In this document: piece after piece, positions 34,373 to 45,399 of the stretch
How the letters are laid out: the number at the start of each line of letters is the position of its first letter
How positions within the stretch are numbered: the first letter of the stretch is position 1
Assembly (NCBI GenBank): GCA_965249725.1
Contig: CBDFMQ010000002.1
Coordinates: forward strand, 160,001-224,000
Reading direction: 5' to 3'
From: Longimicrobiales bacterium
GTDB taxonomy: Bacteria; Gemmatimonadota; Gemmatimonadetes; Longimicrobiales; Gaopeijiaceae
DNA: 64,000 nt
Notes under the pieces: generated by a model
What the model was told of the DNA's origin: nothing
Database searches by the model: none
What the model saw: the letters and a program-made list of their open reading frames with translations, nothing else
Program-made: the position numbers and the translations under genes

Positions 34373-35737
34373 ATGAGCGGCATCTTGGACTCCATGCTCC
34401 GCAATGCACTCCAACTGATCTCGCTTCTGTATCGGCTCCACCCTGTGGGGCCGGTGGCCTACATGGTCGCAACCGCACCGGTACTGCTTTCGGCATCGCT
34501 CACGGCACAGCAACTCCGCTACGACCGGGAGTATCCCGAGATCGGCTACTACACGCACCAGCCGACTGACCCGGTCGCCGAGCTGCAGCGGTCGGTTGCC
34601 CGGGGCGAAGCGGTTTTGACGTTCGACCCGCGAGGCGGATACCTGGCGTCGCTTCTGGAATCCCTCGACGTTCCTGTCGAGTCCCAGATGCTCGTCTTTT
34701 CACGGACGAGCTTTCAGGAGCGTTTCATCTCGCCGGAGACCCCGCGCGCGCTCTACTTCTCGGACGAGGTCTACGTGGCATGGCCGCAGGGCAGCGACTT
34801 CGTGGAGATCGCGGCCATGGACCCTGCACTGGGTCCGGTCTTCTACACGTTGAGCCAAGCGCCGACGGCCACCCCCGAATTCCGGCGGGAATACGGTCTT
34901 TGCCTGCAATGCCACGACACCTACGGACTCTCCGGCGGTGGAGTGCCGCGCTTCCTCATCGGCTCCGGCGCTACGAACGAACTCGGCGAGCCCGACTCGC
35001 ACAACGCTTGGCAGCTGACCACGGATCAGACCCCATTGGACCGGCGTTGGGGCGGGTGGTACGTGACCGGTACCCATGGCCAGCAGGTTCACATGGGGAA
35101 CGTGGTGACGGAGGTACGAACGGGAGATCCGGCGTCGCGGCCGGCGGCTCCCGAGACTCATGGCAACCTCACGGATCTTGGCGGCCTCCTGGATACCTCG
35201 CCTTACCTCACCGGGCTCAGCGACATCGTCGCGCTCATGGTCGTCGAGCATCAGATCCACGTGCAGAACGTCATGACCCGTGCCGGCTGGGAGGCGCGCA
35301 AGTCGGGCGGGCCGGAGGGGTCGGGTCAGGCACCGAGCAACATCGATGAGCTGGGGGAGCCGCTCGTCCGGGCCATCCTGCTCGTAGATGAGGCGGCTCT
35401 TGAAGCTCCGATCGAAGGCACATCTGGCTTTCGTGCTCGCTTCGAGGGCTTGGGCCCGGCCGACGATGAGGGCCGCTCACTCCGCGAATTGGACCTGAGA
35501 CGACGCTTGTTCCGATACCCGCTCAGCTACCTGGTCTATTCCGACGCATTCGGCGCCTTGCCGGTCCACTTGAAGGAGCAGGTGTTCCTGCGGATCTGGG
35601 AGGTAGCGTCCGGGCAGGACAAGACCGAGGACTTCGACCACGTCACTGCGGCGGACGGAGTGGCCGTCCTCGAGATCCTCGAGGCGACGCACCCGGAGTT
35701 CGCCCAATGGATGTCGGATACGGCCAGCCGCCCGTAG
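34373..35737 (+). CDS. Hypothetical monoheme cytochrome c-type protein
   Basis: Single CLQCH motif; conserved-looking SQMLVFSRTS, PRALYF and RWGGWYVTG blocks; start uncertain. Confidence 0.6.
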   Translation: MSGILDSMLRNALQLISLLYRLHPVGPVAYMVATAPVLLSASLTAQQLRYDREYPEIGYYTHQPTDPVAELQRSVARGEAVLTFDPRGGYLASLLESLDVPVESQMLVFSRTSFQERFISPETPRALYFSDEVYVAWPQGSDFVEIAAMDPALGPVFYTLSQAPTATPEFRREYGLCLQCHDTYGLSGGGVPRFLIGSGATNELGEPDSHNAWQLTTDQTPLDRRWGGWYVTGTHGQQVHMGNVVTEVRTGDPASRPAAPETHGNLTDLGGLLDTSPYLTGLSDIVALMVVEHQIHVQNVMTRAGWEARKSGGPEGSGQAPSNIDELGEPLVRAILLVDEAALEAPIEGTSGFRARFEGLGPADDEGRSLRELDLRRRLFRYPLSYLVYSDAFGALPVHLKEQVFLRIWEVASGQDKTEDFDHVTAADGVAVLEILEATHPEFAQWMSDTASRP

Positions 35738-35951: not shown

Positions 35952-36755
35952 ATGAAGTCACGTGCCACGGCCGCGGCCGTCGCCCTCTTACTCGTCTCCG
36001 GTGCCGTCTCGGCGCAGCAGGGACCCGACACGGTCTTCCTGGATGAGCTCACCTGGACCGAGGTCCGTGCGCGTATCGAAGCCGGGACGACGACGGTCAT
36101 CGTGCCCACGGCCGGGACCGAGCAAAACGGCCCCCACATGGTGCTGGGCAAACACAAGTTCATCGTCAACCACGCCTCGAACCTGATCGCACGGGAGCTC
36201 GGCAACGCGCTGGTGGCACCCGTGGTCACCTACGTGCCGGAGGGGTCGGTGGAGCGGATCGCCCAGCACCCGCGGTACAATGGGACGATCACTCTCCCCA
36301 ACGAGCACTACATGAAGCTCCTCGAATACGCGGCTCGGAGTCTGGCCATGGGCGGATTCACGGACATCGTGTTTATCGGTGACAGTGGCGGAAATCAGGG
36401 TGGCATGCGTGACGTGGCGGCCATGCTGAACGAGGAGTGGGCCGGAGAAACGGCGCGGGTGCACTTCGTGGGCGACTACTACTCGAACAATGGCATCAAC
36501 GATTGGCTCATGGCGGAGTACGGTCATACCGAGGAGACGATCGGGGGGCATGCCGGCATCCGTGACACGTCGCAACTTCTTTATGTGGCGCCTCAGCACA
36601 TCCGCACCGATAAGCTTGCGCCCCTCGGCGGTGGTGAGGGGATGGGGGTCACAGGCGATCCCACCCTGGCGTCGGCCGAAAAGGGCCGGCAGGGGATCCA
36701 GATGAAGGTTGACGCCGCCTTGCGGCAGACTCGTGACTTGGTAGGCCCCAGATGA
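35952..36755 (+). CDS. Creatininase-family amidohydrolase, secreted
   Basis: ELTWTEV, GTEQNGPH, DSGGN, GHAG..DTS and GDPTLAS motifs. Confidence 0.85.
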   Translation: MKSRATAAAVALLLVSGAVSAQQGPDTVFLDELTWTEVRARIEAGTTTVIVPTAGTEQNGPHMVLGKHKFIVNHASNLIARELGNALVAPVVTYVPEGSVERIAQHPRYNGTITLPNEHYMKLLEYAARSLAMGGFTDIVFIGDSGGNQGGMRDVAAMLNEEWAGETARVHFVGDYYSNNGINDWLMAEYGHTEETIGGHAGIRDTSQLLYVAPQHIRTDKLAPLGGGEGMGVTGDPTLASAEKGRQGIQMKVDAALRQTRDLVGPR

Positions 36756-38101
36756 TGACTAGAACAGTACTTTCGGCGCTCCTCTTGGTGGTCTCCGTGT
36801 TCTGCGGCGCGCCACTCGCCGCCCAGCAGTCTTCCGAGGAGCGGGGCAGCGACAACCTCACGGTGGTGTCCCATCTGCCTCTCGGTGGGGCCGAGAGCAT
36901 GGCCGATATCGAAATCGAGCAGGACATGTCTCGGCCGTTCGTTTATGTGGCCCGCCAGATGCGGCGGGAGGACCGGCGATCACCGGGCGCTCCAGGCGAT
37001 CGTGGATTGGACATCCTCGACGTCTCCGATCCGGCGAACCCTGATGTGATCCACCGGTGGCGCATCGAGGATTCGGACCTGCACGTGGGTGCGGGCGGCA
37101 AGGACATCAAGACGTTCGAGTGGGACGGCCGTCACTATATCGTCCTGTCCTTCCAGTTCGGCCAGGGCGGGCCCAACGCCGACCTCGGCGCCATCGTCTT
37201 CGACGTCACGGGTCTACCGGATGTGTCGACGTTCCGTGAGGTCGCCCGGATCCAGGGCCCGGGGGAGTTGGCGGGCTTCCACAACGCTTATGTCTACCGG
37301 CACAGCAACGGCAGAGCGCTGCTCTTTTCGACCGTCGCGGGCCCGTTCGCCAATGTGTACGATCTGGGCTACCTGGTGGAGGGCAGGGAAGATGCTTTGG
37401 TTGCTCAAGTGCCGATCCCTCAGTCGGAGCAGGTTCCGGGTGCGCGGGGTTATCACGACTTCTACGTCGGATATCATCCGGACAGCGAACAGGATCGCTT
37501 CTACGGTGGCGGGACCGGCGGGTACTACGTGTACAACATCACCGACCTGGAGGACCCCGAGCTGCTCGTCACGCTGACCGGTGTTCGGGGGGTCGACCGG
37601 GGGCACACGTTCACTCCGTCTCCGGACGGCAGGTACGTCGTGGCCGAGGTCGAGTACCAGTACGCCCCACTCCGGGTTTTCGACCTCAAGCCGGGGCTCG
37701 ACGGCGAGGTGTCGAACATCAATCAGCCCATCGCCGCCTGGTTCGCTAATCCCCAGAACCTGGTCCACAACCACGAGGTCCGCTGGCCTCTAGTGTTCGT
37801 TTCGGCGTACCGGGACGGTCTACAGGTCTTCAGCATGCAGGACCCGAAGAAGCCGCGGACCGTGGCGCACTACGACACCTATCTCGAACCCGAGGGTGCC
37901 GGCGTGACGACGGGTGGGTGGGGCGTCGACGTCCGTAACGCCGACGGCCTGATCGTGTTGTCGGACAAGGAGACCGGCTTCTGGGCCTTCCGCCTCGAGG
38001 GATTCAGCGGGTGGAACGGTCTGGACTACGGAATGCCCAACGTGTCCAGCGTACAGGACTGGGAGAACGGACCGGCAGTGCAGGCTCGCTCGAGGCGGTG
38101 A
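36752..38101 (+). CDS. Secreted beta-propeller protein, second subfamily (copy 5)
   Basis: GFHN, YHD, GHT and HNHEVRWP motifs shared with the 2.5-8.3 kb paralogues; lacks the CFGDPTC N-terminus. Confidence 0.7.
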   Translation: MMTRTVLSALLLVVSVFCGAPLAAQQSSEERGSDNLTVVSHLPLGGAESMADIEIEQDMSRPFVYVARQMRREDRRSPGAPGDRGLDILDVSDPANPDVIHRWRIEDSDLHVGAGGKDIKTFEWDGRHYIVLSFQFGQGGPNADLGAIVFDVTGLPDVSTFREVARIQGPGELAGFHNAYVYRHSNGRALLFSTVAGPFANVYDLGYLVEGREDALVAQVPIPQSEQVPGARGYHDFYVGYHPDSEQDRFYGGGTGGYYVYNITDLEDPELLVTLTGVRGVDRGHTFTPSPDGRYVVAEVEYQYAPLRVFDLKPGLDGEVSNINQPIAAWFANPQNLVHNHEVRWPLVFVSAYRDGLQVFSMQDPKKPRTVAHYDTYLEPEGAGVTTGGWGVDVRNADGLIVLSDKETGFWAFRLEGFSGWNGLDYGMPNVSSVQDWENGPAVQARSRR

Positions 38102-38114
38102 GGCGCCAAACGAG

Positions 38115-38144
38115 TTGACAGGCTCTCGATCTCTCGACTAGAGT
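38115..38144 (+). promoter_or_regulatory. Sigma70-like promoter for the RT locus
   Basis: Perfect -35 TTGACA (38115-38120), 18-nt spacer, -10 TAGAGT (38139-38144); predicted start about 38151, just before the structured leader. Confidence 0.6.
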
Positions 38145-38161
38145 GAGCGTCGCCAGCCTGT

Positions 38162-38367
38162 GCTCTTCCAGAGTTGTGCTGACGGCACCTCGTACTCCTA
38201 CGAGTTGTCGACCGTTGTGGGCCTGCCGCCGTCATTTGAAGCTGTCCGACAACAGTGGCGGTAGGTGAGACAATAGGAATTGAGAACTTTCAGTTACCCG
38301 TCTGTTCCCTTTCGATTAATAGTTCGGCGCTCGCCGTGCTATGCCGTCGGTGCAACTCTGGGAGAGC
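38162..38367 (+). ncRNA. Putative RT-associated structured ncRNA
   Basis: 26-bp terminal inverted repeat (38162-38187/38342-38367) with 22 Watson-Crick and 4 G-U pairs enclosing several hairpins; no + strand ORF in the track; lies directly upstream of the RT. Confidence 0.65.
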
Positions 38368-38387
38368 GAGCTCTTGCCTAGCGTACG

Positions 38388-39629
38388 ATGATGCCGGGCA
38401 CCTTTGAGGCCATTGTCGATCCTGCGAACCTCAGAGCGGCCTATCTGGAAACTGTTCAGCGATTTGAAGAGCAGCGGAAAGGTCGTCGTTACGCGGGTAT
38501 TGACGGAATAAGCCTGAGGGACCTTGCGTTCGTATCGGCGTCATACCTCGAGACTATCCAGCAGGAGATGATCACCTCCTCTCCGCTTGATCCGACCTTG
38601 GAAATGAGCATTCCGAAAGCCGAGGGCGGCACGCGCCTCATTTACAGCTACACCGTCAAGGATCGCATCAAGGCGCGAGCGATCTCTCGTGTCCTCGAGC
38701 CCGTCTTCGAAGGGGCCTTCAGCCCTTTCTTCTTCTCTCACCGCACCACGCACCCACACTACAAGGCGGTCCGAAGCGTCGCCAAGCGATATCGAAGACA
38801 CTACGGGCAGGATACCGTGCTGTTGATAGATGTCGCGGACTATACGGGCAACATCAGGAAGGACCGCTTGTGCGAGCAGTTGCAGGGATTGGGCTTGGAC
38901 TCCAATACCATCGCTTTACTGGAGCTCTTCCTGAACAACAGCGTCATGACCTCCGAGGGCCTCGTCTATCCCGAGAAAGGCCTCGTTACCGGCGTTGGTC
39001 TGATGGGGCTCTTTGCGAATCTGTACCTGAATGATCTCGATCACACGGTGGGCCGACGGGTATCGCTTTATCGACGGGTCGGGGACGACTTGATTCTGAT
39101 GGATCGAGACAGCGAGAAGCTGGCCAACATCCATCGGGACATCACAGATCAGCTAGAGGAGAGAGGCCTCGAGCCGAGCGTGGAGAAGCTGTCGTTGATC
39201 AGGAGTAACGAACGGTTTCGATATCTGGGCTACTCGTTTCACGAGCGACGGATCTCAATTCGCCCGTCGTCGGTACGACGAATCGTTCAGCGTTGGAAGC
39301 GAATCCTGAGGTACTATCCCGGTTCGAAAAACGGAAAGCTGAGACGGCTCTCGAAGATCTTGTATGAGAATGAAGACTCGATCCATCGGGACTTTCTCAG
39401 GGTTATTGCCGACTATCGGTGTTGTACCGACGCAGGGCAGATCCAGGAGTTATCCGGAGTCTTCTATAGGGTGCTGACGCGGTATTTCTATGGCAGCTAT
39501 TCCCACCGGAAACAAAGAAAGGTGAGGCTACTGACGGGTCCGCTTGATGTCCCCTCACTATCCCGGTACTACTTTGATTTCCACCATGGAAGACGCTCAC
39601 TCTCAAGCCTGGCTGTTTCAGCGCGCTAA
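38388..39629 (+). CDS. Reverse transcriptase (group II intron-like, stand-alone, VGDD active site)
   Basis: AGIDG (RT0), IPKAEGGTR (RT1), DRI...LEPVFE (RT2), LIDVADY (RT3), GLVTG...ANLYLNDLD (RT4), YRRVGDD (RT5), FRYLGYSF (RT7). Confidence 0.9.
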   Translation: MMPGTFEAIVDPANLRAAYLETVQRFEEQRKGRRYAGIDGISLRDLAFVSASYLETIQQEMITSSPLDPTLEMSIPKAEGGTRLIYSYTVKDRIKARAISRVLEPVFEGAFSPFFFSHRTTHPHYKAVRSVAKRYRRHYGQDTVLLIDVADYTGNIRKDRLCEQLQGLGLDSNTIALLELFLNNSVMTSEGLVYPEKGLVTGVGLMGLFANLYLNDLDHTVGRRVSLYRRVGDDLILMDRDSEKLANIHRDITDQLEERGLEPSVEKLSLIRSNERFRYLGYSFHERRISIRPSSVRRIVQRWKRILRYYPGSKNGKLRRLSKILYENEDSIHRDFLRVIADYRCCTDAGQIQELSGVFYRVLTRYFYGSYSHRKQRKVRLLTGPLDVPSLSRYYFDFHHGRRSLSSLAVSAR

Positions 39630-41295
39630 TCGCATCAAGCACGAGCTGTACCCCTTGCGCCTCACGAAGCGTCAACGGGCATATCTCCGCGCTGTGCTGG
39701 AGCGCTACCGCCGCCGACTGAGCGGGATCACCGTCTTGATCCTCGCCGCCACTCTCTGCGAGATCGCGATCCCCCTGGTCACGCACGTATTCCTGAAGCG
39801 GTATTCTCTCCAGTTGGAATGGGGGCGACTCTCTTGGGCCTTCGCCGGGCTGGTCGCGCTGGCAGTCGTCTATCTCGGCATCGCGTATCAGCGGATCAAG
39901 CATGAGAAGACCGCCATCGTGCTGCTGCTGAATGAGTTGCGCCACGAGTGGGTGGCGTTCTTCTTGCGCAAGTCACCGCTCTCTCTGCGGCACCACGACA
40001 AAGGTGTCCTGCTCACGAGGATCAGCTATCACCTGTCCCTTCTACAAATGGGACTGGGGAACGCGTTCTTCGTTGGGCTACAGAGCGTATTGCTGGTGGT
40101 GGGCCTCGTTGCTGTGACCTTCTTCATCGACACTCGGCTCCTTATTCTAGTGCTCGCAACCCTGCCTTTCTGCGCCATCCTCTTTGCGGCAGGATATGTG
40201 GTCTCACGATTCTACCTGAGTCAGGATCAGACCCTCTATTCGAAGATCCTCCAGTACGTCTCAGACGTTTTCAACGAACTGCCGGCGATCCACTTCGCGA
40301 ACAAACGGCCAGCCGTGCTGGACCATCTCGATCAGATGGTGAGCATCGATTCCTACTTTCGGGTGCGGCGAGAGCTATGGCTGAAGTTCGGCAACGTCAT
40401 TCTCTTCGTGCTCCTGGCTCTCCTCACGGGGGCCTTCTACCTCGTGGAGACGATGGTGCCCTTCTTTGAGCTGGACGGTCGCGTACAGCTCCCCGTGTAC
40501 ATCATCGTCTCCGGCATCCTGATCAAGCTGCTATACCAGAGTCTGCGAGTGGGCTTGTTCGCTTTTCCAGTCACGCTCGGCTTAGTGCTCTGCATTGGCG
40601 AGGGCTTTCCCTTGGGGAAGAGGCGGAAGCAGCAACCCATCCGGGAGTTCTCGGAGATATCGTTTTCGGCGAAGAAGGTCAGGCTCTTCCCTGACGGACC
40701 GATGGTCCGAGACAAGGAGTTTCGTTTCCGCCCCGGTGACCGAGTTCTAATCACTGGTCGGGAGGGGTCCGGCAAGAGCACGTTGGGGCAGTTGTTCTCG
40801 GGGCTTGCTCCGCTTGGTTTCACCAAGCCCTGGCGGATCAGAGTGCAGGGAGAGCGCCTCTCGTACCAACATTGGAGAGACCGTGCGCACGGTCTGACGA
40901 CCATTAGTCCCTTCTTCCAGAGCCAGGGAACCGTCTTCGAGTTCTTTTCACAGCAGCACAGCTACGACAGCCCTCCAACTGATATCAGGGTCTTCCTCGA
41001 AAGGCTCGCGCCGTACCCCGAGTTGAAAGGACTCCTTTCGCACGTTCGCGTTTTGGGCAAGCGAATCACACCTCAAAACACGTCGTTCGCGGAATTGGGA
41101 ATCCTGCAGATGGCGGCGTGTCTGCTTCATGCCCCGCGCGTCTTGGTGGTAGACAACACCTGGTTGGATCTGCGTCACGAAGGCGTCGACCGGGTTCTTC
41201 AGCTGCTCGATCGTGAACTGACGTCTACGGTTCTGATATGCTTTGCTCGAAACCGGAACGACCACCTCGATTATGATCAGTATCTCACGATCTAG
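39586..41295 (+). CDS. ABC exporter-type half-transporter (TM domain + degenerate NBD)
   Basis: About 6 hydrophobic helices; Walker A GREGSGKST; Walker B VLVVDN; ATG 39586 overlaps the RT 3' end by 44 bp. Confidence 0.75.
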   Translation: MEDAHSQAWLFQRANRIKHELYPLRLTKRQRAYLRAVLERYRRRLSGITVLILAATLCEIAIPLVTHVFLKRYSLQLEWGRLSWAFAGLVALAVVYLGIAYQRIKHEKTAIVLLLNELRHEWVAFFLRKSPLSLRHHDKGVLLTRISYHLSLLQMGLGNAFFVGLQSVLLVVGLVAVTFFIDTRLLILVLATLPFCAILFAAGYVVSRFYLSQDQTLYSKILQYVSDVFNELPAIHFANKRPAVLDHLDQMVSIDSYFRVRRELWLKFGNVILFVLLALLTGAFYLVETMVPFFELDGRVQLPVYIIVSGILIKLLYQSLRVGLFAFPVTLGLVLCIGEGFPLGKRRKQQPIREFSEISFSAKKVRLFPDGPMVRDKEFRFRPGDRVLITGREGSGKSTLGQLFSGLAPLGFTKPWRIRVQGERLSYQHWRDRAHGLTTISPFFQSQGTVFEFFSQQHSYDSPPTDIRVFLERLAPYPELKGLLSHVRVLGKRITPQNTSFAELGILQMAACLLHAPRVLVVDNTWLDLRHEGVDRVLQLLDRELTSTVLICFARNRNDHLDYDQYLTI

Positions 41296-42745
41296 ATTCC
41301 GCCTGAGCAACCGCGAGCGGCGGTTCCTACAAAAGGGGGCGACACTCTTTGTGGCGTTCTCGGTGCTTGTTGTAGCCGCCTCGTTTCGCTTTGGAGACGT
41401 CCTTCGCAACCAGAAGCCCGCCTACTTCGTTACTGAGCAGGTGGTGGAGGGTCCTCTGCGGGGGAGGCTTCTCTTTAACGACGCCCCGAACAGCACCGCA
41501 CTATCGGAGTCCATCGTTTCCGTGATTCTCCAGGCCGAGCACTCGGCCGAGATGGGCATGTATTCCTTCAAGCACGAGGGGATTCGGCAGGCGTTGCTGA
41601 AGTCCTTCCAGGCAGGGAAGGTGGTGCACCTGGTCTTGGAACGCAGCAATCACCTCCAGCACGAGCGATTCTTGGGGGAGTACGATCTTCCGGTCACTGA
41701 ACTCGGCTCTTCGATTGGCGCGGAGCAGGGGGACTACGTACACCACAAGTTCTTGTTGAGCGACCGTGGTGAGAGGGGCGCTCAGCTGCTGGTCGGATCG
41801 CTGAACTACACTCCGCTCCAGGAACAATACGATCCCAGCTTCCTGCTTCACACGGCCGATCCGACCGTCCTGGAGGCGTTTTCAGCCGAGTTCGCACTCC
41901 TTGAGCGCAGGGTACGTGGTCGCAGCAAGCTCCGACAACCCGGCTACCGTCCATTGAGTAAGCGCCTACGATATTCCAATGGCCTCTTGGAGGTTTGGTT
42001 CGGACCCGGTATCGGGGGAAACTCCGTCAAGCACCGTCTCATCGATCTCATTCAGCAGGCGCAAACGGCCATCGATGTCATCATTTGGCAGATGACCGAC
42101 CGCGACGTTGCGCGCGTCCTCGTCGATAAGGCCCGAGAGGGCATCCCCGTGAGGATCATCACCGACGATTTCTACATTTGGGGCGATCATTCAGCGTTCC
42201 AGACGTTGGAGAACGCTCTCAATCAAGACGCTGACCTACCCATTGAGATCATCAGTGACTTGTACCGAACGCTCGATTTCTCGGGACTGATTCGAACGGA
42301 GGAGGACTATTTCAACCCCTATATCCACCAGCACACGTTGATCGTGGATGACAGCGTGGTCTTGTCGGGAACGAACAACTGGACGGCCAATGGCTTCTAC
42401 AGAAACGACGAAAGCGTCTTCGTTTCTGACGTCGACTTTTGGGTGGATGGGTTTCGGGCGTCGTTCGCCCGTCACTACGAACAGCTGCGAGGCCGTCCAT
42501 TGGTTGTGTGGCGAGAAGGAGACGAACTCCACGTCGGGGAGGGTAATCGTGATCTCCTTGGCAAGACCCTTGTTGCCTATCACGAACGGAGTGAAGTAGA
42601 AGAGGTGCCACGGCCGTGTTTACGAGTCACCGTAACCGATGTCTCTCACGCTATCGTCATTCCTCCGGCATGTCGAGGCCGACACATCGCCGTGCTCGTC
42701 CTGGACCGGCAAGACCGGATGGTGGCGGCCGGCTACGTCAGGTAG
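41273..42745 (+). CDS. Phospholipase D/nuclease-superfamily protein with two PLD domains and an N-terminal membrane anchor
   Basis: HHKFLLSD...GSLNY and HQHTLIVD...GTNNWT; overlaps the ABC gene end by 23 bp. Confidence 0.85.
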   Translation: MISISRSRFRLSNRERRFLQKGATLFVAFSVLVVAASFRFGDVLRNQKPAYFVTEQVVEGPLRGRLLFNDAPNSTALSESIVSVILQAEHSAEMGMYSFKHEGIRQALLKSFQAGKVVHLVLERSNHLQHERFLGEYDLPVTELGSSIGAEQGDYVHHKFLLSDRGERGAQLLVGSLNYTPLQEQYDPSFLLHTADPTVLEAFSAEFALLERRVRGRSKLRQPGYRPLSKRLRYSNGLLEVWFGPGIGGNSVKHRLIDLIQQAQTAIDVIIWQMTDRDVARVLVDKAREGIPVRIITDDFYIWGDHSAFQTLENALNQDADLPIEIISDLYRTLDFSGLIRTEEDYFNPYIHQHTLIVDDSVVLSGTNNWTANGFYRNDESVFVSDVDFWVDGFRASFARHYEQLRGRPLVVWREGDELHVGEGNRDLLGKTLVAYHERSEVEEVPRPCLRVTVTDVSHAIVIPPACRGRHIAVLVLDRQDRMVAAGYVR

Positions 42746-42795
42746 TTGGAAGTCCGACGAGGACCGCGACTCCCATATCGAATTCGACCAGGCCG

Positions 42796-43194
42796 CTAGT
42801 GACCGCTGTTGTCGGCCTCGCAGTTGGGGGCACAACCCGGGTTATCCTCGGGGTCGTTGGGATCACTTCCTGCATCCTCCTCCTCCCCGTTGGTCCATCC
42901 GTCACCGTCATCATCGTCCCCGGCATCCCTCGGATAGCTGTCAGCGTTGTCAGGGTCCGAACCATAGTCTCTCTCGTCGGCGTTGTTGGATCCGTCGCCG
43001 TCATTGTCTCCATTGGGGTCTTCCGGATAGTCCTCTGCATCATTCGGATCGGTACCCGCATCTTCTTCTTCGGCGTTGGTGAACTCATCCCCGTCATTGT
43101 CGTCCCCGGGGTTGTTTGAGGGGTTACATGCGGCCAAGAAGGTCGATAACAGTAGCGGAAGAAACAGCCTCTTTAGAGCATGGAAGTAGTTCAT
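42796..43194 (-). CDS. Small acidic lipoprotein with three thrombospondin type-3-like Ca-binding repeats
   Basis: Lipobox LAAC; three copies of DxDGDxxxNxxExxxG[ST]DPxx. Confidence 0.75.
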   Translation of the reverse strand: MNYFHALKRLFLPLLLSTFLAACNPSNNPGDDNDGDEFTNAEEEDAGTDPNDAEDYPEDPNGDNDGDGSNNADERDYGSDPDNADSYPRDAGDDDDGDGWTNGEEEDAGSDPNDPEDNPGCAPNCEADNSGH

Positions 43195-43389
43195 GTACCT
43201 TCTTGCCTCCCTCAGATTCACCCTTGGTGACGAGAACTAGAGCGGCGCCCTGCGGAGTTCTTGCGTCGTCATCGGTCGGGTAGCGGGTCTCGATCGTCGA
43301 CGCCACCCAGGTCGCGCGAAAGCAAGCAGTCCCTGGCGGCTCGGGACAACGTGATAGACGGAGCTGCTGCGGTCAACCTGAGGCTAGAT

Positions 43390-45399
43390 TCAGGACACTG
43401 AGTCCGACTGCCGAGCAATCTCCACACGGGCGTCGTTGAAGCACGCTCCCCCGCCGACCACATTCAGGTGCGTCGGACAGAGTGCGGTAGAGGTCAGCCC
43501 GTTCTTCGACGACTTCCGCCAGGCTCCCTTGGGCATCGACGCCACCCCCGGCCTCACCCGTTCCTCGAGCCGTGCCTCGCAGATGACTTCGCCCAGTTCG
43601 TTGAACACACGGACGACCTCACCGTCTGTGATGCCCCGCGGGGCGGCGTCCACCGGGTTGATGGACACCGACAGCACCGGATAGTTGAACTCGCCAAAGG
43701 TGCTCGACACCATCTTGTTGGTTGCCGGGCTGATCAATGTGAGCGGATACTCGGTGTCTTCGGCCGCTTCGTACTGATAGGGCTGTGGGCCGAGCTGAGA
43801 CGGGGTCAGGTGGATCCGGCCGTCGGGCGTGCGAGGCATGATCGTGCGGAGCTGGATCGCGCCGTCGGGAAAATCGACGGTGTCCACGCGTCCGGCCGAC
43901 AATGCCTCCACGTTCGCGGGACGACCCTCCAGGCTGAGTTCTTCCGCGACCTTCCGCATGTGGGTCTCACCGTCCCAGTCGAAGGGCGCATCGTCGAACC
44001 CGTTGGCCCGCGCCAACATGGAGAACACCTCGTCGTTGGGCTTCGCCTCCCCCATGGGATCGATCACCGGGCGGATCCCACCGACCACGTAGTTGCCGTA
44101 GCCGACTCGCAGGTCGTGCTGCTCCAGGAATGTCGTCGCGGGCAAGATGATGTCGGCGTAGTAGGCCGTATCCGTCATGACCTGATCGAAGACGACGGTG
44201 AAGAGATCCTCTCTCGCCAGGCCGCGGAGGACGGCATTCTGGTCGGGTACGGTGACCGCCGGATTGCAGTTGTAGACGAAGAGGCCCTTCAGTGGGGGGC
44301 TCTGATCTTCGTTCAGAAACTCCCCGAGAGACGTCATGTTGATGAGGCGCGTGGTCCAATCGACGTCTCCGTAGACTCGACTCGCGTTCACTTTGGCGGC
44401 CCCGGTGTTGCTCATCGTATAGCCGCCGGCATGGACCCCGAACTTTCCCATGAGCGCAGGCATCGCCAGGATGGCAGCGACTGCCTGACCGCCGTTGCGA
44501 TTCCGCTCCAGCCCCCAACCGCACCGGATGACGGCGGGACTGGCGTCCGCATAGGACCGAGCCAGGGTCTCGATGTCTTCGGCACGAACCCCTGATTCGG
44601 CGGCAGCGGCGTCCAAGGTCCACCTCTCGGCCTGTGCCAGCAGAGGTTCGAGCCCTGATGCCTCCTCGGCGAGGAACTCGTCATCGAGTTCTCCCGCCTC
44701 GTGCCAAAGCCGTATCATCGCGAGGGCCAACGGCAGATCGGTGCCGGGTCGTACCGGAAGGTGCAGGTCGATCTCGTTGTCGGAGAAACGGTTCCAGGGA
44801 TCGACCACGGCGACGAACGCGCCGTTCCGCTTCGCCTTACGCAGATACGGCACCAGATGGATGTTCGAGGCCTTGGGGTTCGCTCCCCAAACGATGATCG
44901 CTTGCGCGTCCGGATAGGCCTCGAACGGGACACCGGGCATCTTGCCGTACATCCCGATCGCCACCTCCGTGGTCGGGACCGCGCAGATGGTCTTGTCGAG
45001 GCGCGACGCCCCCAACCGTGCGAAGTAGAGCCTGTCCAAGCCGCCGTCGCTCAGGAGTCCGTTCGAGCCCCCGTAATGGTAGGGAAGGATGGCTTCTCCA
45101 CCCCACTCCTGTTTGATCTCCTCGAACCGCTCGGTGATCTCGCGGATCGCCTCGTCCCACGAGATAAGGACGTACTCGTCGGAGCCCTTGGCGCCCGCCC
45201 GTCGCATCGGGTGGAGCAGGCGGTCTTCGTGATAGACGCGCTGGCCGTACTGGCGGACCTTGTCGCAGATGAAGCCGTTGGTGACGCTGTGGTCTCGGCT
45301 TCCGGAGATGCTCTGCAGTTTGCCGTCCTCGACCCGCACCTCGAGTGCGCAGGTGTCCGGGCAGTCCATGATGCAGGTGGTGGCCAGGGTTTTCGTCAT
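43390..45399 (-). CDS. Molybdopterin oxidoreductase (DMSO reductase family)
   Basis: CIMDCPDTC...ICDK Fe-S motif, WGANP, ADIILPATT and C-terminal Mo-dinucleotide domain. Confidence 0.88.
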   Translation of the reverse strand: MTKTLATTCIMDCPDTCALEVRVEDGKLQSISGSRDHSVTNGFICDKVRQYGQRVYHEDRLLHPMRRAGAKGSDEYVLISWDEAIREITERFEEIKQEWGGEAILPYHYGGSNGLLSDGGLDRLYFARLGASRLDKTICAVPTTEVAIGMYGKMPGVPFEAYPDAQAIIVWGANPKASNIHLVPYLRKAKRNGAFVAVVDPWNRFSDNEIDLHLPVRPGTDLPLALAMIRLWHEAGELDDEFLAEEASGLEPLLAQAERWTLDAAAAESGVRAEDIETLARSYADASPAVIRCGWGLERNRNGGQAVAAILAMPALMGKFGVHAGGYTMSNTGAAKVNASRVYGDVDWTTRLINMTSLGEFLNEDQSPPLKGLFVYNCNPAVTVPDQNAVLRGLAREDLFTVVFDQVMTDTAYYADIILPATTFLEQHDLRVGYGNYVVGGIRPVIDPMGEAKPNDEVFSMLARANGFDDAPFDWDGETHMRKVAEELSLEGRPANVEALSAGRVDTVDFPDGAIQLRTIMPRTPDGRIHLTPSQLGPQPYQYEAAEDTEYPLTLISPATNKMVSSTFGEFNYPVLSVSINPVDAAPRGITDGEVVRVFNELGEVICEARLEERVRPGVASMPKGAWRKSSKNGLTSTALCPTHLNVVGGGACFNDARVEIARQSDSVS

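Follow-up and report, generated by a model that had tools for sequence, protein, structure and literature searches.

Retrons and the defence-associated reverse transcriptase (DRT) systems DRT2, DRT9 and DRT10 pair a reverse transcriptase (RT) with a non-coding RNA (ncRNA), often together with a membrane effector, as described in the excerpted texts of PMC12632851 and PMC9226505. For DRT10, which belongs to RT group UG17, and DRT9, which belongs to UG28, the excerpt of Tang et al. (2025, PMC12632851) gives an ncRNA, an RT and a (SLATT) membrane effector, and that of Mestre et al. (2022, PMC9226505) associates UG26 with a Vsr-like nuclease and UG17 with SLATT; UG17 subtypes are the subject of a preprint (10.64898/2026.04.29.721553). 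Group II-like (G2L) RTs are free-standing and come without an intron RNA, according to the excerpted account of Simon & Zimmerly (2008, PMC2602772). Here we describe a unit of four parts, a pseudoknotted ncRNA, an RT, a degenerate ATP-binding cassette (ABC) exporter-like protein and a membrane-anchored phospholipase D (PLD) family protein, within a 64,000-nucleotide stretch from a Longimicrobiales bacterium (contig CBDFMQ010000002.1, positions 160,001 to 224,000; hereafter the window). The unit matches no entry in PADLOC 2.0, Pfam, NCBIfam or Rfam, and the combination of RT, ABC-like protein and PLD was not found in the literature searched, outside which lie the supplementary RT tables of Mestre et al. 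(2022), which could hold unclassified members. Within those databases and that literature, the statement of the first-pass annotation of this DNA that it knew of no described RT class with an ABC exporter and a double-PLD protein therefore stands.

That annotation had recognized one promoter, a structured leader and three co-oriented genes with overlapping ends, and all of these are found where it placed them (Table 1). The overlaps of 44 nt between RT and ABC genes and of 23 nt between ABC and PLD genes are reproduced with the ATG starts listed in the table, the first of which agrees with the N termini of homologues and with an identical 569-residue database entry, and the second of which was placed by homologue alignment. 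The promoter-like site is the single one of its kind in 37900-43400; because shuffled sequence gives a mean of 1.5 such sites, it is not significant on its own. A TATAAT-like box aligns 5' of the RNA in most related loci (alignment A2).

Table 1. Features of the RNA-RT-ABC-PLD unit and of the island around it, in window coordinates
Feature	Position	Strand	Basis or remark
Promoter-like site TTGACA-18-TAGAGT	38115..38144	+	Consensus match only
Structured ncRNA, ~205 nt, pseudoknotted	38162..38367	+	Fold, covariation among relatives, model R3
Closing helix P1	38162-38187 with 38342-38367	+	Longest inverted repeat in 37900-43600
Hairpin P2	38189-38204	+	
Pseudoknot	38204-38210 with 38247-38253	+	
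P3	38211-38230 with 38257-38277	+	Encloses hairpin 38241-38256
Variable segment	38278-38309	+	Between P3 domain and conserved box; length very variable among loci
Conserved box	38310-38322	+	
Hairpin P4	38319-38342	+	
Reverse transcriptase, 413 aa	38388..39629	+	RVT_1 E = 4e-17
ABC-exporter-like protein, 569 aa	39586..41295	+	ATG 39586; mechanical open reading frame (ORF) of 583 aa from TTG 39544
PLD-family protein, 490 aa	41273..42745	+	ATG 41273; mechanical ORF of 500 aa from TTG 41243
Opposite-strand ORF, 132 aa	42796..43194	-	Acidic, lipoprotein-like; bacterial TSP3 (calcium-binding type) repeats, Pfam TSP3_bac E = 1.9e-10

The association of the three genes is conserved well beyond the window. 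A scan with an RT profile, taking one genome per species, returned 39 related loci, and a scan with a single protein returned none. By label, 25 of these loci belong to Patescibacteria/Candidate Phyla Radiation (CPR) lineages, four are unclassified and one is from Flavobacteriaceae; the remaining nine come from co-assembly metagenome-assembled genomes (MAGs) labelled 'Uncultured Gammaproteobacteria', a label that was not verified. Outside the window, the RT-ABC-PLD unit is thus seen mostly in ultra-small bacteria. Searches by tblastn with the window proteins found all three genes in 33 of the 39 loci, counting L015 and L029, where the PLD gene is cut by the contig end; the other six show a contig end or no PLD match by tblastn, with L009, L010 and L045 ending inside or after the ABC gene and L041 after the RT. 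The order RT-ABC-PLD holds in 30 of the 33, and in L042, L044 and L047 the ABC-PLD pair is divergent and lies upstream of the RT. Where coordinates could be computed by script, spacing was -107 to +23 nt between RT and ABC genes (16 loci) and -68 to -4 nt between ABC and PLD genes (19 loci), so that in nearly all the measured loci the genes overlap at their ends. The proposed linkage of ncRNA, RT, ABC and PLD is hence borne out across loci, and neither a lack of conserved linkage nor identity with an already named system, the two outcomes set out beforehand as telling against a new system, was found.

We assessed the RNA by its fold and by the behaviour of its relatives. The leader at 38150-38375 folds at -105.9 kcal/mol (z = -7.27), with none of 200 shuffles folding as well, and no Rfam family was matched in 37900-43500, even at E <= 1. 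In every related locus, 228-1104 nt of non-coding sequence precede the RT, often of higher GC content than the RT gene, and a MAFFT alignment of the upstream regions shows conserved blocks and visibly covarying helices, against which the helix coordinates in Table 1 were read from the window sequence. Applied to a 12-sequence alignment from a single subclade, RNAalifold gave a structure of 48 pairs, and compensatory changes are seen in 40 of these. A script located an additional 6-bp pseudoknot, formed between the loop of the inner P3 hairpin and the sequence that flanks P2 on its 3' side. With the pseudoknot included, the structure has 54 pairs, of which 46 changed on both sides; 94.4% of its cells are paired compared with 78.9% after shuffling (0/500 shuffles as high), and as a control, sliding the partners by 1-3 columns reduced pairing to 28-46%. 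The pseudoknot itself is 100% paired in this structure, with five of its six pairs covarying, and RNAalifold run on all 38 sequences, the window among them, recovered its helix with seven pairs, six of them covarying; the helix is kept in at least 33 of the 38.

Excluding the window, we then built covariance models of the 5' domain (85 positions) in successive rounds, using a shortened calibration that makes their E-values rough. The first (R1), from 12 sequences belonging to a single subclade, failed to find the window even when filters were switched off, the second (R2, 21 sequences) reached it at 18.1 bits (E = 2.4), and the third (R3, 32 non-window sequences) matched 38193-38279 at 30.9 bits (E = 0.014), the only match at E <= 1 in the whole 4.16-Mb genome. 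A tandem template like that of DRT10 or telomerase is not supported as a general feature of the RNA, as direct repeats beat shuffles in only 7 of 38 variable segments.

In the RT, residues D148, G232, D233, D234 and K267 are invariant in the family, D148, D233 and D234 being active-site residues. Motif C reads YRRVGDD, thus VGDD where group II RTs have YADD; we drew no conclusion from a weak Pfam RdRP_1 match at this motif (E = 0.0011). A protein search returned about 50 full-length relatives at 31-45% identity before dropping to group II intron RTs at E ~1e-20, and an exhaustive profile search of 1.84 billion representatives gave about 50 clusters at family-level scores and 625 proteins at E <= 1e-30, the next neighbours of the family being RT-Cas1, Cas6-RT, TOTE RT-primase fusions and GIIM-bearing intron RTs. 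Against known structures, the family profile scores best with group II intron RTs (7uim, 8e-38; 6ar1, 5e-37), followed by Cas6-RT-Cas1 (2e-33), DRT9 (8e-22), DRT2 (3e-12), the RT of a diversity-generating retroelement (6e-12), G2L4 (PDB 9d4s, 4e-11) and retron RTs (1e-7 or worse). The AlphaFold2 model (predicted local distance difference test score, pLDDT, 93.6) superposes best on the GsI-IIC RT, with a TM-score of 0.81 over its whole length, covering fingers, palm, a thumb-like region and the C-terminal domain, and next on DRT9 (0.71) and G2L4 (0.68).

Other comparisons set the protein apart from group II intron RTs. It scores 126 bits with the NCBIfam group II model TIGR04416, the cutoff of which is 300, and no GIIM or endonuclease domain was found in it by Pfam. 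The PADLOC generic RT, UG26 and UG17 models match 47 of 47 family members, over the RT core, at best values of only 1e-48, 2e-39 and 7e-39, compared with up to 1e-177 for the family's own profile, and member-level scores were not reached with any UG-family, retron or DRT model of PADLOC. A quick maximum-likelihood tree was inferred for 79 RTs taken from the profile matches, and UG and retron references in it are three distant rows only; there, the family together with seven RT-only sisters is split from the GIIM, CRISPR and TOTE RTs by a branch with 98% support (Shimodaira-Hasegawa-like approximate likelihood ratio test, SH-aLRT), and the window RT sits within the family crown. RT-Cas1 proteins lie across this branch, and no Cas domains were found in the window genes or in 121 neighbour ORFs of the related loci. 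On these comparisons the RT family is, as judged from sequence, a clade of its own beside group II intron, CRISPR and TOTE RTs. The earlier description of the RT as group II intron-like is supported by profile matches, by the GsI-IIC fold match and by the tree; the phylogenetic placement proposed with it puts the family across a branch from CRISPR RTs and on the group II intron side, its scores with UG and retron models stay below member level, and the PADLOC search that was likewise proposed yielded no named system at member level.

The ABC-like protein consists of a six-helix transmembrane domain (TMD) of the ABC_membrane type (43.8 bits) fused to a degenerate nucleotide-binding domain (NBD; ABC_tran, 33.2 bits), and its nearest named families are exporters of the MsbA and CydD type, at a weak 33-38 bits. 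Working ABC ATPases are recognized by the Walker motifs, the LSGGQ signature and the H-loop. In the window protein, Walker A is present (GREGSGKST), the signature motif is lost, the residue after Walker B is N and not E, and the H-loop His is missing. The loss of motifs extends across the family: in an alignment of 21 ABC-like sequences (A6), the conserved positions fall in the TMD and coupling regions, the residue after the Walker B Asp is N, S, D, A or H, the signature keeps only its Q, conservation does not extend to the Walker A Lys, and the H-loop His is absent. The label 'degenerate ABC' given to it earlier is therefore apt, with the hydrolysis motifs lost family-wide; the idea that the ABC/PLD pair might export a product fares less well, since an NBD without catalytic Glu, signature and H-loop throughout the family makes ATP-driven export unlikely. 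A profile search with the ABC alignment, in which the 8000 candidates sharing most words were scored, found at least 12 proteins and says little about family size. A co-fold of the ABC-like protein with the RT (alignments A6 and A1) scored 0.02, which, without controls, speaks neither for nor against binding. In one locus (L042) the ABC-like gene has an in-frame TAG at codon 326, which may reflect a pseudogene, an error in sequencing or an alternative code.

The PLD protein begins with a basic stretch and one transmembrane helix, which bears out its description as membrane-anchored, and continues with two Nuc-like lobes (two PLDc_2 stretches). It is predicted to be anchored with its N terminus inside and its catalytic domain facing outward. 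In the nuclease branch of the PLD superfamily, two copies of the motif HxK(x)4D(x)6GSxN make up one active site. Here motif 1 is the canonical HxK(x)4D and motif 2 is HxH(x)4D; among 28 aligned PLDs, H167, K169, D174 and N188 of the first and H362, D369, G376 and N379 of the second are invariant, and His replaces Lys at position 364 in 28 of 28. The 'double-PLD' of the first-pass annotation is thus correct in that two PLD motifs are present, but the second is HxH rather than HxK. Long forms, among them the window protein, end in a further beta domain, some 85 aa in length, that contains a conserved pair of Cys. The closest proteins in sequence are the Zucchini/MitoPLD, NucT and Nuc nucleases (2.5e-20 to 3e-17), a result that would place the protein in the nuclease (Nuc/NucT/Zucchini) branch of the PLD superfamily. 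Its model (pLDDT 90.4) is closest to two-lobed PLDs, including the PLD3/PLD4 single-stranded DNA (ssDNA) exonucleases, and the fold matches also include PLD1/2, F13 and phosphatidylserine synthase.

Zucchini and PLD3/4 carry an N-terminal membrane anchor, and the unit's PLD shares with them this anchor, an HKD-fold nuclease-type sequence and, with PLD3/4, the two-lobed fold. Unlike Nuc, NucT and Zucchini, it fuses two Nuc-like lobes with an invariant HxH in place of HxK, adds the Cys-pair domain in its long forms and is encoded by a gene obligately linked to an RT. The analogy drawn earlier with DrmC, a PLD-family protein in the defence context of DISARM, is weak: the score with the DrmC model is 47.8 bits, far below family level, the unit's protein is membrane-anchored and double-domain, and no other Drm genes lie by the unit.

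Compared with described RT systems, the unit combines features of several. It has its best profile and fold matches (GsI-IIC) among group II intron RTs and is free-standing like G2L RTs; it also fits the description of a G2L RT, being closest to group II intron RTs with no intron RNA, G2L4, which is distant, being the one G2L class compared. It differs from G2L RTs in that an ncRNA with a pseudoknot is dedicated to it and that its ABC-like and PLD partners are fixed, features reported for no G2L class in the excerpted account (PMC2602772). With DRT10 and DRT9 it has in common an ncRNA in which a large closing stem is decorated by smaller stem-loops, as in the excerpt of PMC12632851, a stand-alone RT with a membrane partner, a fold resemblance (DRT9) and a score of 104 bits with the PADLOC RT_UG17 model; in contrast to these, its RT is not at UG/Abi member level, its ncRNA lies directly 5' of the RT and showed no consistent A-B-A' repeat in the comparison of direct repeats with shuffles, and its partners are a pseudo-ABC and a putative ecto-PLD, with no SLATT match among the window genes by PADLOC or Pfam. 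The ncRNA upstream of the RT, closed by a long-range (a1/a2-like) helix, and the effector genes in the operon recall retrons, whereas retron RTs are distant from this RT, which scores 29 bits with the retron model NF038233 (retron_St85; cutoff 235), and the unit's RNA is pseudoknotted and belongs to no Rfam family.

In the window, the unit is carried by a low-GC island of about 5.3 kb (38093-43413) inserted between two convergent genes, with a GC content of 0.53-0.60 at about 38000-43500 compared with 0.62-0.69 in the flanks. Two genomes of the same genus have an empty site, with the flanking genes 53 nt (G002) and 57 nt (G001) apart, and because these genes are contiguous there we read the region as an insertion. 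A query with the window RT found no RT of its type in either genome, only intron-type RTs at E ~1e-16; these are present as 9-14 near-identical copies with 508-aa frames, and the same query has one RT match in the window genome. No terminal direct or inverted repeats were found in a search of the island ends, and no integrase was found there. The host is a Gemmatimonadota (Longimicrobiales-like) genome and not a CPR genome: genes of MAGs from Longimicrobiales (Gemmatimonadota) match the flanking molybdopterin oxidoreductase at 82-88% identity. The same loci (L009-L013) are nearest for the RT, the ABC-like protein and the PLD alike, at 43-46% identity, which fits a single-block transfer from a donor not yet sampled. 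The RT-ncRNA unit is most likely self-contained and horizontally acquired, and its occurrence here shows that it is able to cross phylum boundaries as a single block. The pseudoknot, the island with its empty-site evidence and the non-CPR host all go beyond the first-pass annotation.

As to function, we tentatively favour an RT-ncRNA conflict system with a membrane effector pair, because its build, with an ncRNA, an RT with intact active-site residues and membrane partners carried together in a portable cassette, most resembles that of retrons and DRT systems. The RT would bind the ncRNA much as group II intron RTs bind their introns, part of the ncRNA serving as template. The RT-RNA complex or its product would then act on the cytoplasmic face of the pseudo-ABC, at its basic N-terminal extension or its NBD-like domain, and the pseudo-ABC would behave as a ligand-driven switch and not as a pump. 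Its conserved TMD may relay the signal across to the PLD outside, or may open the membrane, and the outcome would be conflict or defence, through nuclease or phospholipase action at the envelope or through abortive infection.

Several observations weigh against this proposal. The 121 nearest neighbour ORFs, from 36 of the 39 loci, encode housekeeping proteins, pilins, cupredoxin-like proteins and giant surface proteins, and the hints of conflict genes near the unit are limited to a Fic protein with a helix-turn-helix protein (L019) and a DUF4143 AAA protein (L033); an anti-phage role, as suggested earlier, thus finds housekeeping or surface genes and not defence genes around the unit. One small CPR MAG holds three copies of the unit (L017, L018 and L020), and up to three copies in small CPR genomes could equally fit a housekeeping role. 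Among 80 loci kept from IMG/VR there is one family member (L132), which looks like a cellular fragment. The direct repeats, significant at p <= 0.05 in seven of the 38 variable segments and A-rich in some, include none in the window, and segments of 3-4 nt would escape this test. Finally, a PLD that faces outward would be an unusual effector for an RT signal arising in the cytoplasm, and the outward orientation itself comes from the positive-inside rule applied by eye and not from a computed topology.

Some of the same observations point to the alternative that survives best, which is possible although we doubt it, namely an envelope or nucleic-acid handling role instead of defence, in which the RT-ncRNA complex makes a nucleic acid that the pseudo-ABC and the ecto-PLD display or process at the cell surface. 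The unit might then handle surface or extracellular DNA, or take part in DNA uptake or nucleotide scavenging in episymbiotic CPR, with the Gemmatimonadota copy being accessory. Such a role would suit the lack of a defence-island context, the up to three copies in one tiny genome, the predicted outward PLD with its sequence likeness to NucT, Nuc and Zucchini and its fold likeness to PLD3/PLD4, and neighbours that include type IV pilin-like genes (L017, L023, L027 and L045), DprA (L014), RecG (L026) and giant surface proteins, although these neighbours may mirror CPR synteny only. The NBD, without its catalytic residues, makes ATP-driven export unlikely here too, no translocation route for nucleic acid is evident, and a stand-alone portable island is more typical of accessory or conflict genes.

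It is unlikely that the pair is instead directed at lipids, with the PLD a phospholipase, the ABC-like protein a scaffold derived from a lipid flippase, and activation damaging or remodelling the membrane. The weak match to MsbA and CydD type exporters and the fold matches to PLD1/2, F13 and phosphatidylserine synthase agree with this idea, but the PLD sequence matches favour nuclease-type members. It also draws on the single sister-clade RT locus recovered, by a scan with a two-sequence alignment (L212, 3888-9241), where a canonical ABC exporter with intact Walker B DE and H-loop is convergent with the RT and overlaps it, and a class 3 lipase lies upstream. That exporter shares 21% identity with the unit's ABC-like protein (hhalign E = 1e-20), a similarity that may be generic exporter likeness, and L212 is one case in which the ABC gene, being convergent, is not in the same operon as the RT. 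The 245-nt gap before the RT in L212 holds a duplicated 10-nt word.

Still less probable, in our judgement, is that the upstream RNA is only a cis-regulatory leader, an attenuator or riboregulator, and that the RT uses other templates. The 3' strand of the RNA ends 21 nt before the RT start in the window and 10-15 nt before it in many loci, and a U-rich tract often follows the RNA, as a leader would have it. However, three loci carry complete tandem RNAs before one RT (L036:905-1509, L046:6375-6985 and L009:2570-3075), with conserved scaffolds, differing variable inserts and a U-rich tract after the first copy; in L036 and L046 the duplicates have separate closing helices and stand over 300 nt upstream of the RT. 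Such duplicates argue for an RNA that functions as an independent unit, beyond the role of a leader. In the three loci with divergent genes, moreover, the RNA is found beside the RT rather than beside ABC-PLD, and its size and pseudoknot are more like those of RT-bound ncRNAs than of attenuators.

That the island is a mobile retroelement, a group II intron or a self-moving derivative, is scarcely credible despite the affinity of the RT and the insertion, given that no group II intron RNA family was matched in 37900-43500 at E <= 1, that Pfam found no GIIM or endonuclease domain, that the RNA is self-closed and located entirely 5' of the RT, that the unit is single-copy in its genome, and that the island carries an opposite-strand gene and no target-site repeats.

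The opposite-strand gene of the island encodes the TSP3 protein listed in Table 1, whose signal peptide and lipobox were recognized by eye; grouping of the neighbour ORFs of other loci gave no match to it, and another TSP3 protein lies near the RT-ABC-PLD unit in L024 (4718-5464). Upstream of the island, two large ORFs on the plus strand (36752-38101 and 34373-35737) have no clear Pfam family and only a weak LVIVD repeat match, and the one of 449 aa has many paralogue-like DNA matches in G001 and G002. Among the related loci, giant ORFs of 1150-2150 aa, mostly without Pfam domains, stand directly upstream of the unit in L014, L016, L028, L037, L046 and L132; in the last, two giant proteins without Pfam domains are encoded upstream, as in CPR loci, and the contig is probably cellular. 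A conserved protein of about 195 aa (alignment A9), with a transmembrane anchor, an internally duplicated helical repeat and no Pfam family, adjoins the unit in 12 of the 39 loci, a subclade with short PLD forms, and is absent from the window. Its gene follows the PLD in 11 of these (L021, L022, L025, L026, L028, L030, L031, L034, L036, L037 and L046) and lies upstream in L038.

Retrons, DRT2, DRT9 and DRT10 each revealed an unexpected mechanism of DNA synthesis and yielded tools. The present unit contributes a further RT lineage, on the side of the tree where the group II intron RTs lie, together with a dedicated pseudoknotted RNA. Its two partners, an ABC-fold protein that lacks ATPase motifs and a putatively outward PLD in which HxH is invariant, were not found described as a pair in the literature searched. 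The Gemmatimonadota copy is a complete, GC-rich and self-contained 5.3-kb island from an ordinary diderm, with its boundaries set by the empty sites of two congeners, and should therefore be easier to express and test than those of unculturable CPR bacteria. As a speculation that we hold to be improbable, an RNA-templated product or the RT-RNA complex may gate the non-hydrolysing ABC-fold protein, which would in turn control the outward PLD nuclease or feed nucleic acid to it, a form of transmembrane RT signalling or nucleic-acid display native to episymbiotic CPR and transferable to ordinary diderms. If true, the unit would be a transmembrane RT device without counterpart among retrons, DRTs or CRISPR RTs.

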